Origin: a virus
Lineage: Duplodnaviria; Heunggongvirae; Uroviricota; Caudoviricetes
Reading direction: 5' to 3' (one strand)
Length of the DNA stretch: 9,976 nucleotides
IMG/VR virus record: IMGVR_UViG_2778260993_000012
The translations under genes and the position numbers were made by a program. The notes under the pieces were generated by a model. The model searched no databases. It had not been told where the DNA came from and was given only the letters and a program-made list of their open reading frames with translations. Within the stretch, counting starts at the first letter, position 1. Every line of letters starts with the position of its first letter. Shown here one piece after another: positions 6,294-9,631 of the stretch.

Positions 6294-6656
6294 TTAATGA
6301 CCTGCTGCGCGGAGTTTTCCGTCAGGTTCACCGGCAAGAGTCAGTAATTGTCCCTGGTCTTCCTGCAGAATAGTCAGGCGACCACCGCGATTGACATACA
6401 TCGGCGTTTCGGTGGTGTCTTCTTCAGAAATTTTCCCGCGGTTAGTCGGGCGAACATATGAGAGTTTGTGTTTGATTTTCACACGGTTCTCATCAAACGG
6501 TTCGATTTCCAGGTTGAGCGAGACCTTACCTTTGGTTTTCGTGTTCATCACACCGGAAGCGACTTCACTGAGAACTGCGCCGATTTTTGTTTCAAATACG
6601 CCGCCGTCCAGCTCCCCGATAAATGCCTGCACATCAGTACTGCGTTCGCTAGCCAT
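6294..6656 (-). CDS. YfdP-like small phage protein (120 aa); first gene of the leftward early operon
   Basis: Start set at ATG 6656 (MASERSTDVQAFIGELDGG...) with a GAGGAG ribosome-binding site 8 nt upstream. The track's 182-aa version (start 6842) adds a Cys/Arg-rich extension that runs into the structured leader. Same length as K-12 YfdP, from memory. Confidence 0.55.
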   Translation of the reverse strand: MASERSTDVQAFIGELDGGVFETKIGAVLSEVASGVMNTKTKGKVSLNLEIEPFDENRVKIKHKLSYVRPTNRGKISEEDTTETPMYVNRGGRLTILQEDQGQLLTLAGEPDGKLRAAGH

Positions 6657-6676
6657 TTTGTTGCTCCTCATCATAT

Positions 6677-6804
6677 CGACCCTGCAAGGTCGGTTGGTTT
6701 CTCCACAAAACAGAGAAGAACACCTGCGGTGGCAGCCGCCCGGATGGATTGGGTTATGAGCCCGTCGTCCGGTGATGCTCTTCTCTGTTTTGTAAAAAGA
6801 GCGG
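6677..6804 (-). promoter_or_regulatory. Structured 5' leader element with mutually exclusive helices, directly upstream of the first early gene
   Basis: On the minus-strand RNA, segment B (plus 6777-6793) can pair with upstream segment A (plus 6794-6802) as a 9-bp local hairpin with two G-U pairs, or with downstream segment C (plus 6705-6721) as a 15-bp long-range helix. A boxA-like sequence CGCTCTTTTTAC (plus 6793-6804) overlaps segment A. A further hairpin (plus 6677-6692) lies 8 nt before the ribosome-binding site. Function is inferred. Confidence 0.3.
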
Positions 6805-7327
6805 TACCAGCCGGAAGCAAGTGTACAAACTGGTACTGCCAAAGCAGTGGCTGTTGTGGTGACCGGTGCTGATCTCCGGCTTGCGGTTATTTCAGACTCT
6901 CACGGGCGTTTGATTGCCCCGCCGAACAGCTCTTTTCCGCAATAGCTGCAATGTCTTTCGCGCATCAGCCTGCGCATTCACCACAACGCTGAGAGCATTG
7001 CCGGTGTCCGAATCGAACGGACCTTTTCCCTGCCCAACCCTCCCATCTGAATGGGACTGTCTGGAATTGAACCAGCACTTATGCCTTGCTCGTCAATGCT
7101 CTCATCGTTGCGTCCTGGTCTCTTCCCAGGCGTCAAACCGAATCGCCACGCTGGTTAGGCGTCTTATCAGCATCCTCATTGACTTGCACATTCCGGCTAC
7201 CTGGTTTGTTTGCCCGAGCAAGGAGTGGATTGTCCCCTTTAACGTCCCCAGACCGCTAACGACGCATGTGCCATACGCCGTGTTACAACCAAATTTTGTT
7301 AGGACCTTGTTTGTTGGTCTGGAAAGA

Positions 7328-7379
7328 AAGATAAAATGAAATTGCGCATTATGCAAGTGTTTTGTTGCGAGATGCGCAA
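7328..7379 (-). promoter_or_regulatory. oL/pL-like region: two 15-bp palindromic operator sites overlapping a leftward promoter
   Basis: Sites TTGCGCATTATGCAA (7342-7356) and TTGCGAGATGCGCAA (7365-7379) share a TTGC-N7-GCAA pattern with centres 23 bp apart. Candidate minus-strand promoter: -35 TTGCAT (plus 7351-7356), 17-bp spacer, -10 TATCTT (plus 7328-7333). The first operator overlaps the -35. Confidence 0.5.
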
Positions 7380-7392
7380 TATGATGGGTGAT

Positions 7393-7414
7393 GAAAAGCC
7401 ACCTTCTGGTGGCT
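7393..7414 (-). terminator. Intrinsic terminator downstream of the repressor gene
   Basis: On the minus strand: 7-bp stem AGCCACC / GGTGGCT with a 4-nt loop, followed by TTTT, starting about 20 nt after the repressor stop. Confidence 0.6.
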
Positions 7415-7434
7415 AATTGATGAGGAGGTCGGGG

Positions 7435-8127
7435 TTAATTGTGTCGCTTAAGGGTTTGTGACTGACTGATTAAGACCTTCCCAAAGACCATAAACCGGTG
7501 TTCGTTTTCGCTGGTAATTCCCCATTCACGGTAAATCTGGTTATCAGAAATCACCAGTAGTTTGTCAGGTATCATTTGCAGTCGTTTGACATAAATTTTA
7601 TCATCAAAACCAAACACATAGATACCATCCCCATCAAACTGATTGATACTGATATCAACGAAGATGAGATCTCCTGGCTCAATGGTTGGACACATACTGT
7701 CCCCACGAACGTTGATAACTTTAATGTGATTGGCTGGTCGTCCTCCAAACATCGATACAGCATTATCAGTTATGTATTCAATGGCATGAATCACATCAAT
7801 GACATCACCGCCCTGGATAAGGCCATTTCCCGCACTGGCACTGACATCCAGCATTTCAATACGGAATACATCCTTCACCTGCGCAACATCCTCACCAGTA
7901 CTGTTTTTACATACAGTATTACTTTTGAAGTCTGAGGTAAAGAGATCTGCAATATCAACACCTAAGCTCCTGGCAATATTACTCAGGGCTTGTTCAGTGA
8001 ATTGTTTCTGCTTACCTGTTTCCAGGCGTGAGATATTCGCCGCATCCACTCCTATTGCTTCAGCGAGATCGGCGATTTTCATGTTCTTCGCCTGGCGAAG
8101 TTGTCTGACTCGATTTCCTATGTTCAT
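7435..8127 (-). CDS. cI-type phage repressor: N-terminal helix-turn-helix (XRE) domain plus C-terminal S24 (LexA-like) autopeptidase domain, 230 aa
   Basis: The N-terminus (VRQLRQAKNMKIADLAEAIGVDAANISRLETGKQ) is a helix-turn-helix. An Ala-Gly cleavage site lies in SASAGNG. RGDSMCPTIEPGDLIFVD carries the catalytic Ser, and VKRL the likely Lys. Divergent from a Cro-like gene. No Shine-Dalgarno sequence before the ATG. Confidence 0.9.
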   Translation of the reverse strand: MNIGNRVRQLRQAKNMKIADLAEAIGVDAANISRLETGKQKQFTEQALSNIARSLGVDIADLFTSDFKSNTVCKNSTGEDVAQVKDVFRIEMLDVSASAGNGLIQGGDVIDVIHAIEYITDNAVSMFGGRPANHIKVINVRGDSMCPTIEPGDLIFVDISINQFDGDGIYVFGFDDKIYVKRLQMIPDKLLVISDNQIYREWGITSENEHRFMVFGKVLISQSQTLKRHN

Positions 8128-8224
8128 GCGTTTATTACATTTCTTTATTGCGCGTTAAGCAAATCAACTTGCGCAAAATATTTGCGTGAAATAATATGCT
8201 TATCACGCAATATGTGGAGGTTAT
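8128..8224. promoter_or_regulatory. oR-like divergent control region between the repressor and the Cro-like gene
   Basis: Operator-like sites of the same family as oL: TTGCGCGTTAAGCAA (8148-8162), palindrome TTGCGCAA (8169-8176), ATGCTTATCACGCAA (8196-8210) and inverted repeat TTGCGTGA...TCACGCAA (8182-8210). Candidate rightward promoter: -35 TTGCGC (8169-8174), 18-bp spacer, -10 TAATAT (8193-8198). Candidate leftward promoter: -10 TGTAAT (minus strand, plus 8134-8139), 6 nt from the repressor ATG. Confidence 0.55.
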
Positions 8225-9354: not shown

Positions 9355-9439
9355 TTCTGCAATTCCGGGACGTTACACTGTTCAGGCACCTTATAAAACG
9401 GGTGCCGGGATTGGCGTCCTGAAATTGATTACTGAGCAT

Positions 9440-9461
9440 AACCGCGCTCATGCGGTTTTTT
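9440..9461 (+). terminator. Terminator-like hairpin with U-tract (AACCGC-GCTCAT-GCGGTT followed by TTTT)
   Basis: 6-bp stem, 6-nt loop and a T6 run on the plus strand. Weak stem. It lies between the candidate small ORF and the Rha-like gene, and inside the open +2 frame. Confidence 0.3.
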
Positions 9462-9631
9462 CGTGTCATGAGCATTACTACGCCCAAATTATGGTGGGGC
9501 GTACAGGGCCGACTTCGGTCGGGCCGGGTTCGGTAGTCTCCGGTAACGCCAACCCTGTACGTCTCACCACCTCTGTGATTGGCGTCCCATGTGGTGAGTT
9601 TTCTAAAAAACTGACTACCGGGGCTGTCACT

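Follow-up and report, generated by a model that had tools for sequence, protein, structure and literature searches.

Organization of the leader

The stretch of DNA analyzed here (9,976 nt; virus record IMGVR_UViG_2778260993_000012, Caudoviricetes), the whole of which we call the window, is a lambdoid prophage with 99.6–99.9% identity over the queried region to the Shiga toxin 2 (Stx2) phages 1720a-02, Stx2a_1447, and WGPS2. Our subject is its minus-strand leader at 6657–7320, which lies between a predicted early-left promoter (pL) and yfdP, the first credible early-left gene (6294–6656, minus strand, ATG at 6656; RefSeq WP_000135680.1; phrog_204). In the complete phage, Q is present and no N is annotated. 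The leader is a mosaic of five RNA modules, each conserved separately and folding independently: module A (7283–7109), module B (7110–6984), module C (6987–6853), a DicF-like small RNA (sRNA) element with an intrinsic terminator (6852–6794), and module D (6793–6705).

The leader is non-coding. There was no credible or annotated gene between yfdP and the repressor gene (6656–7435) in RefSeq or the phage records, no Pfam match for any leader open reading frame (ORF), and no N-like protein in the phage annotation or in the Pfam search of the leader ORFs, which started with TTG or GTG without Shine-Dalgarno sequences. The leader RNA (664 nt, minus strand) had a minimum free energy (MFE) of −249 kcal/mol, compared with −215.5 ± 6.9 kcal/mol for shuffled sequences (z = −4.85). 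An earlier note on this DNA had described an untranslated, structured leader 3' of pL, without an N-like gene and with ORFs that were short or had TTG starts and no ribosome-binding site. That observation was confirmed, and the interpretation attached to it was partly supported.

Similarity searches showed that sub-segments of the leader were conserved separately in very different phages. The segment 7294–7117 was found in the P1 ban operon directly 3' of tRNA-Ile2, the segment 7204–6981 in the Salmonella epsilon15-like phage SPN9TCW directly 5' of tRNA-Arg, and the segment 6787–6737 in Klebsiella phage GZ7 directly 3' of tRNA-Arg. Among 125 loci with the invariant core GGTAGCCGGAATGTGCAAG (120 viral contigs, the window, and four reference loci), P1-like copies followed tRNA-Ile2, epsilon15-like copies preceded tRNA-Arg, and about half of the loci were in lambdoid pL leaders. 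Where the earlier note had seen a single leader or switch, the region was a mosaic of separately conserved cassettes that also occur beside tRNA genes in P1, epsilon15-like, and Klebsiella phages. Its more general proposal of a structured non-coding RNA was borne out by covariation in modules A and D and by compensatory changes in module C. The note had looked to compensatory changes across related loci and to an Rfam/Infernal scan; the former were found, and the latter matched no family to the leader. The Rfam scan of the whole window at E ≤ 1 gave nothing in the leader, and the covariance models of Rfam 15 (including YrlA, 6S, riboswitches, and ribozymes) applied to 6600–7440 gave only noise (E ~7–9). 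ARAGORN predicted no tRNA or transfer-messenger RNA (tmRNA) gene at its default and made only implausible calls at relaxed thresholds. Integron attC-like sites were considered for the CCACAAC/GTTGTGG flanks and rejected: the flanks misfit GTTRRRY, and the invariant G.U pairs mark a strand-specific structure.

Structure and distribution of module A

Module A (7109–7283, minus strand) is a pseudoknotted RNA of about 175 nt, which scored 137.7 bits (E = 9e-43) with a covariance model designated R1. An alignment of 28 sequences (A2) supported six helices: P1, P2, P5, P3, a pseudoknot of the P3 loop, and P4. P1 is the hairpin CGGCGUAUG/CAUGCGUCG, P2 closes a variable insert, P5 and P3 form a junction, and P4 is CCUGG-GAAGAGA-CCAGG. 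In the pseudoknot, AACC of the P3 loop pairs with a downstream GGUU. Across the 28 sequences, 95.9% of the cells were paired, compared with 27–48% for slid partners, 13 pairs were changed on both sides, and none of 500 shuffles reached the observed score. The pseudoknot also covaried, with AACC/GGUU in the window lineage and CACC/GGUG elsewhere. The covariation was reproduced on an independent set of 23 bacterial-genome copies recovered with R1 from Kosakonia, Citrobacter, Klebsiella, Enterobacter, Kluyvera, Phytobacter, Erwinia, Buttiauxella, and others. Because invariant U.G pairs would become A.C on the other strand, the module A fold is that of a transcribed, minus-strand-specific RNA. Its unpaired nucleotides were very highly conserved.

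Module A was present in at least 12 enterobacterial genera and in P1 (131.5 bits with R1) and epsilon15-like phages. It occurred in 1831 of the 5426 complete E. coli genomes, in none of which it was annotated, and the copy number was one per phage genome, in the pL leader. It had no Rfam match, either in the whole window or in 6600–7440 at E ≤ 10, and its sequence strings did not occur in the searchable literature. Module A is a strong candidate for a new RNA family: a widespread, unannotated RNA of about one-third of complete E. coli genomes, including those with O157:H7 Stx2 phages, and of P1 and Salmonella and Klebsiella phages.

Two further observations concern its distribution. Full-length copies were found on contigs of metagenome-assembled genomes labelled Oscillospiraceae or Bacillota (L343 and L355, the latter at 166.6 bits), which are most likely mis-binned enterobacterial phage DNA. 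In phage SfII (L005, 1640–1690), the pL promoter and the 5' leader were kept and module A was decayed to CGGUG-CAUGUGUCG by deletion of its apical part; a moron-like insert with genes on both strands followed.

Modules B, C, and D

Module B (6984–7110, minus strand) has a 20-bp closing stem (7110–7091/7003–6984; inverted repeat I2, 90% complementary) that contains a conserved AGAGCAU/AUGCUCU box. Its interior consists of a T-arm-like hairpin (7075–7061), a second hairpin (7056–7041), and another T-arm-like hairpin (7022–7006). The earlier note had pointed out two T-loop-like hairpins, and both were found here, CUGG-UUCAAUU-CCAG at 7075–7061 and GUCCG-UUCGAUU-CGGAC at 7022–7006; each has the 4–5-bp stem and 7-nt UUCRANY loop of the T-loop motif, which defines a motif and not membership of a family. 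In Salmonella phage SPN9TCW, module B had a counterpart of about 88% identity that adjoined tRNA-Arg. Across loci, the 5' strand of the closing helix was conserved and the interior was swapped.

Module C (6853–6987, minus strand) is closed by a 10-bp stem, GUUGUGGUGA/UCACCACAAC (inverted repeat I13, 10/10 complementary), and contains a 5' hairpin GCGCA-GGCUGA-UGCGC, a variable center, and a 3' hairpin GCCGG-AGAUCAGCA-CCGGU. The loops of the two hairpins are complementary to each other (GCUGAU/AUCAGC). Compensatory variants were found at four loci (L045, L054, L012, and L335), and cassettes of this type also followed DicF in the Qin prophage and put in locus L143. The 3' hairpin (6880–6863, minus strand; GCCGGAGAUCAGCACCGG) resembled positions 30–47 of the E. 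coli sRNA RydB, a similarity that was not significant in Rfam (E = 6.8).

Module D (6705–6793, minus strand) has a 20-bp closing stem (6793–6774/6724–6705) around a three-way junction with the arms CCGGA/UCCGG, GGG-CUCAUAA-CCC (6763–6751), and GCGG/CCGC. The arm CGGGCUCAUAACCC is identical over 14 nt to the anticodon arm of E. coli tRNA-fMet, whose sequence was verified. The anticodon-arm motif was the search pattern for the module D family of at least 120 viral loci, so that its invariance there arises by construction and is not evidence. In module D, 94.5% of the cells were paired compared with 35–53% for slid partners, 11 pairs were changed on both sides, and none of 500 shuffles reached the observed score. 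In Klebsiella phage GZ7, module D lay directly 3' of tRNA-Arg.

The DicF-like element and its homologues

DicF is a regulator of cell division, of metabolism, and of the virulence of enterohemorrhagic E. coli. In the window, the DicF-like element (6794–6852, minus strand) contains UUUGGCAGUACCAGUUU, a 10-bp stem, and U7. The intrinsic terminator between modules C and D is GCAGUACCAG-19 nt-CUGGUACCGC-UCUUUUU, with the stem at 6840–6830/6810–6801 (inverted repeat I16) and the U-tract at 6800–6794; the 19-nt loop exceeds the limit of the terminator scanner. Relative to K-12 DicF, the element is a homologue by position and, in part, by sequence; UUUGGCrGUAyCAGUUU and the terminator are common to both. 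When DicF (...GUUUGGCGGUAUCAGUUUUAC...) was compared with the window (...CUUUGGCAGUACCAGUUUGUAC...), the 5' arm of the terminator was common to both and the seed was not, the 5' seed UUUCUGGUGACG of DicF being replaced in the window by CAACAGCCACUGC.

The position of the element is that of dicF, in a repressor-controlled early-left operon, between the same flanking cassettes, and with a Rho-independent terminator at its 3' end. In the K-12 Qin dicBF operon, the same cassettes occurred both upstream and downstream of dicF, and in an mEp460-like variant (L109) the Qin cassette CCGCGAAAUGGCGCGGCGGUAAGUAUGGCGGGG... was followed by a DicF-like terminator element of the window type. The same modules were also present in the C1-controlled ban leader of P1, for which the record gives a 'dicF-like region' and three tRNAs as annotations. 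In Qin, where processing and efficient termination are documented, the operon transcript yields DicF in two forms, of 190 nt through RNase III and of 53 nt through RNase E, and transcripts extending past dicF were not detected (bioRxiv 10.1101/2023.04.14.536235). By our own mapping, the RNase III cut in Qin falls in a cassette closing stem. In the window, processing and termination are supported through this homology to Qin and not directly.

RNAduplex calculations against the ftsZ leader gave no better pairing for DicF or for the window variant than for shuffled sequences, and the comparison therefore carries no weight. By eye, AGUUU and UCCG of the DicF terminator loop are complementary to the ftsZ Shine-Dalgarno region CGGAGAGAAACU, and the window retains both at 6830–6811 (minus strand), separated by an extra 8 nt. 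In P1 (L003, 2700–2720), the sequence UUUUCUGGUGAUGAC, directly after module A and just 5' of the ban ribosome-binding site, resembles the DicF seed.

Promoter and flanking features

The pL region (7328–7379, minus strand) contains two 15-bp CI operators of the form TTGC-N7-GCAA at OL (7342–7356 and 7365–7379), a candidate −35 hexamer TTGCAT (7356–7351), a 17-nt spacer, and a candidate −10 hexamer TATCTT (7333–7328). A third operator lies at OR (8148–8162); the three matches compare with 0.38 expected by chance. The two hexamers are weak and drew no call from a consensus promoter scanner; both are kept in SfII. Transcription is predicted to start near 7320. The short 5' leader that would follow (7284–7320, minus strand) includes AUUUGGUUGUAACA at 7297–7284, which is common to P1 and lies there directly after tRNA-Ile2. 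At the other end (6657–6704, minus strand), module D is followed by a conserved GGAGAAAC box (6704–6697), a hairpin with a UGCA(G) loop (6692–6677), and the yfdP Shine-Dalgarno sequence GAGGAG (6669–6664). In most of 45 sequence clusters, this box was found 3' of module D together with a small hairpin whose loop is (U)GCAG, and the two stand just 5' of the ribosome-binding site of the first gene.

Beyond the leader, the minus strand carries int (75–1361), the early-left genes yfdQ and yfdR downstream of yfdP, and a CI-like S24/HTH repressor gene (7435–8127; RefSeq and phage records), and the plus strand carries cro and a CII/CP76-like gene. The repressor gene has an intrinsic terminator, AGCCACC-AGAA-GGUGGCU with UUUUC (7393–7414, minus strand), and the homologous site of SfII is annotated as a terminator. 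At 9373–9574 (plus strand), Rfam models matched in tandem a c4-a1b1-like target (21.7 bits), isrK (60.1 bits), and C4 antisense RNA (82.3 bits). This arrangement, 5' of Rha/antirepressor genes, is a control module of the P1/P7 immI antirepressor type.

Proposed account of the array and alternatives

The account that we favor, at a probability of roughly 60%, is that the leader is the non-coding head of the pL operon in an N-less lambdoid prophage of the Stx type, and that it is an array of independently folding cassettes of the family found around dicF in Qin dicBF. After inactivation of CI, RNA polymerase would start near 7320 and pass in order through modules A, B, and C, the DicF-like terminator element (6840–6794), module D, and the yfdP ribosome-binding site. 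The 20-bp closing helices would serve as RNase III substrates, and cuts made by RNases III and E would release small stable RNAs, among them a DicF-like sRNA whose 5' seed has diverged. The terminator would limit the transcription that reaches yfdP-yfdQ-yfdR and the further early-left genes, and the dense structure would stop a long untranslated RNA from becoming a Rho substrate. Module A would be a separate type of RNA that binds a protein or the polymerase, for which antitermination in cis is the leading candidate.

Several points weigh against this account. We infer the transcription start, the processing, the efficiency of termination or attenuation, and any function of modules A–D. The Rfam model of DicF (RF00039) had no match in the window at E ≤ 1 or in 6600–7440 at E ≤ 10, and the name DicF-like derives from synteny and a similarity of about 20 nt, with a different 5' seed. 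Because module A is absent from Qin, the Qin precedent is silent on it. Copies of module A were also found far from promoters, the one in P1 being 2.3 kb inside the ban operon, as well as behind other cassettes, and one explanation may not fit all of these contexts. The conserved flanks of the cassettes could partly reflect recombination 'boundary sequences' and not RNA function.

The likeliest alternative is that module A is a processive antiterminator acting in cis as RNA only, a large relative or functional analogue of the put RNAs of HK022 and HK639. Module A would fold on the nascent pL RNA and, bound to RNA polymerase, take it past the DicF-like and later terminators in place of N. The phage has Q and lacks N, and since an intrinsic terminator lies in the leader between module A and the first gene, some control of read-through is needed. 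The context is that of put, with the pL operators and promoter at 7328–7379, module A at 7283–7109, the terminator at 6840–6794, and no N. Unrelated epsilon15-like phages show the same succession of promoter, A, B, tRNA or cassette C, terminator, and gene, and in the L012/L042 lineage module A starts within a few nucleotides of the predicted pL start, like putL (PMC9378689). One module A per genome was found, as in HK639, and the very high conservation of its unpaired nucleotides is of the kind usual in RNAs that bind a conserved host machine. For comparison with put, we read the sequences of HK022 putL, HK022 putR, and the annotated HK639 putL-like RNA and recovered 26 genuine put loci; in a gapped scan for ACGGCG-N(8-24)-CATGCGTCG, the matches were mostly due to chance, and the class with an 11-nt gap alone was real put. 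At some of these loci (L143, L180), genuine put RNAs were followed by C-type cassettes, so that put and module A occupy equivalent slots at the head of the same kind of array. The motif ACGGCG...CAUGCGUCG is common to P1 of module A and stem I of put, and within it lies the CAU from which U28 contacts the zinc-binding domain of the beta' subunit (PMC9378689).

However, nothing else of the put consensus (AAACCAUGCGUCGG...GGCGGG-N-AGGAW-N-CGGCAAU, about 70 nt in two stems) was found; the hallmarks GGCGGG...AGGAU...CGGCAAU are absent from module A, which has another topology than put and is over twice as large. R1 had no match in HK022, HK639, or 23 put loci at E ≤ 10, and a blastn comparison of the leader with the immunity region of HK022 gave only noise. 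In P1, module A is deep in the operon, and no terminator separates it from ban; at some loci other cassettes precede it, and SfII keeps the leader with a decayed module A. The put-like element that the earlier note had suggested has a counterpart in position and in the stem-I motif, whereas homology was not found by blastn or by covariance model. We regard put-like antitermination as a serious but minority hypothesis, possible and well short of probable.

By eye, the closing stem of module B has in its 3' strand (7003–6990; CGGCAAUGCUCUC) 10 nt in common with the 3' strand of stem II in HK022 putL (CGGCAAUGCUGCUC; L128), and GAGCGC in the 5' strand of put stem II resembles the AGAGCAY box of the cassettes. 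It may be that put is a minimal member of the same cassette family. The HK639 record (L129, 37910–37969) annotates an 'M3-like RNA' between cII and the replication genes; in the prophage studied here, the pR side runs off the window.

A broader proposal, which we advance tentatively and consider doubtful, is that module A represents a new class of RNA-only processive antiterminators that bind RNA polymerase in N-less lambdoid, P1, and epsilon15-like phages and that have only the stem contacting the zinc-binding domain in common with put. The leader would then be part of an undescribed, Enterobacterales-wide system of exchangeable structured-RNA cassettes at the heads of early operons of temperate phages, some of them tRNA-arm mimics, with put and DicF as two members. 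The cassette organization, including the tRNA-arm mimics, is not described as a system in the accessible literature.

A third possibility, which we judge unlikely, is that the cassettes are stable RNAs that mimic tRNA and are processed together with phage tRNAs, with T-arm mimics in module B and a mimic of the anticodon arm of initiator tRNA or tRNA-Ile2 in module D. In trans, such RNAs would serve as decoys or sponges of host factors that bind tRNA, such as anticodon nucleases, VapC-type toxins that cut tRNA-fMet, or modification and processing enzymes. In three unrelated phage groups, the modules adjoin real tRNA genes and share their orientation, module B has two canonical 7-nt T-loops on 4–5-bp stems, the second of which is placed, as it is in tRNA, directly against the closing stem's 3' strand, T-arm-like hairpins recur in the cassettes of other loci, and module D contains the 14 nt identical to the anticodon arm of tRNA-fMet. 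Nevertheless, ARAGORN gave no tRNA or tmRNA even under relaxed settings, Rfam gave no Y RNA or tRNA-like family, no partner protein was linked to the modules, and the argument is one of resemblance, in which the constancy of the anticodon arm carries no weight because that motif was the search pattern.

Another reading, in line with the attenuator or switch of the earlier note, takes 6840–6705 as such an element, in which alternative pairing of the boxA-like segment, with NusB/NusE on boxA, would decide between termination and read-through. The string CGCUCUUUUUACAA does resemble boxA (GCUCUUUA), it stands at the junction of the terminator with the module D helix, and the MFE structure extends this helix into the U-tract. 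The boxA-like CGCTCTTTTTAC was indeed present at 6803–6792, but it is formed by the 3' arm of the terminator and the U-tract and is not conserved: most relatives read CCGCCCUUUUUAC or CCGUCCUUUUUAC at the homologous position and have lost the boxA core. No boxB-like hairpin follows it. The three segments exist as inverted repeats I1, I6, and I16; the local hairpin among them is the terminator stem, the I6 pairing is only 71% complementary, and the switch itself was unsupported. The long-range helix, given as 15 bp in the note, is 20 bp (25 bp in the MFE structure) and shows covariation. Polymerase transcribes its 3' partner about 90 nt beyond the U-tract, so that, from the established mechanism of intrinsic termination, this partner could not compete with the terminator hairpin at termination. 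We consider a switch of this kind quite improbable.

The idea that the interval encodes one or more small proteins, such as an N-like factor or the ORFs that mEp460 annotates in the leader, with the structure being incidental, can be practically discarded: three PHROG families match leader translations and a 25-aa ORF with CxxC can be read by eye in module C, but the families are of 'unknown function' and partly on the antisense strand, Pfam gave no family, RefSeq calls no gene here across the 5426 genomes, the ORF starts are TTG or GTG without Shine-Dalgarno sequences, and the alignments contain compensatory changes of base pairs as well as indels whose lengths are not multiples of three. The PHROG families are probably spurious ORF calls on conserved, RNA-coding DNA, some of them antisense. 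The ORFs concerned are 6468–6869 (plus), 6674–6820 (minus), and 6914–7336 (plus) for phrog_3651, phrog_33599, and phrog_36251; these and the 'hypothetical proteins' mEp460_036/037 (L002) overlap RNA modules or the antisense strand of yfdP.

The array of dicF-type cassettes would explain several 'hypothetical proteins' and PHROG families as probable mis-annotated RNA genes. It places DicF and put RNA in a larger family of modular RNA cassettes and makes testable the question of how N-less lambdoid phages get polymerase through their early operons. The tRNA-arm mimics hint at a possible interplay of phage and host through factors that bind tRNA.

Comparison with known systems

The leader has in common with lambda N/nut its position 3' of pL and a boxA-like string. 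Unlike lambda nut, with a conserved boxA, boxB, and N downstream, the window contains neither an N gene nor boxB, and its boxA-like string is the tail of a terminator and is not conserved in relatives. The put RNAs of HK022 and HK639 are, like module A, structured RNAs encoded in cis just 3' of pL in N-less lambdoid phages. They differ in architecture, put having two stems in about 70 nt and module A five helices and a pseudoknot in about 175 nt, and the stem-II motif is lacking in module A.

The tRNA-like domains of other RNAs (the T-arm/acceptor minihelix, the bacterial Y RNA YrlA, and tmRNA) resemble the cassettes in having a long terminal stem and T-arm-like hairpins with UUCRAUU loops. 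The cassettes differ from these domains in lacking a cloverleaf, a CCA end, an ARAGORN or Rfam match, and a nearby gene for Ro/Rsr or another partner; further tRNA-like traits of the cassettes are the anticodon-arm mimic and their physical linkage to tRNA genes.

In the ban leader of P1, the modules are spread over 2.5 kb and interleaved with tRNA genes and tciABC, and module A stands directly after tRNA-Ile2 and before ban. As in the window, the same cassettes, the DicF-like terminator, and module A are all oriented with transcription.

The dicF region of Qin was not among the comparisons of the earlier note. In Qin, the array follows three small ORFs (ydfABC), whereas in the window it follows pL directly; Qin lacks modules A, B, and D, and the window sRNA has another 5' seed and a longer terminator loop than DicF. 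Both lie in leftward operons under the control of a repressor, in lambdoid elements without N. The cassette types and their order are common to the two: a long-stem cassette, a CCGCGAAAUGGCGCGG... cassette (present in L109), an sRNA in the DicF position with a UUUGGCGGUAyCAGUUU terminator, and a GUGGUGAAUGCG... cassette follow one another. The best-documented relative of the leader is the dicF locus, which is closer to it than either nut or put.

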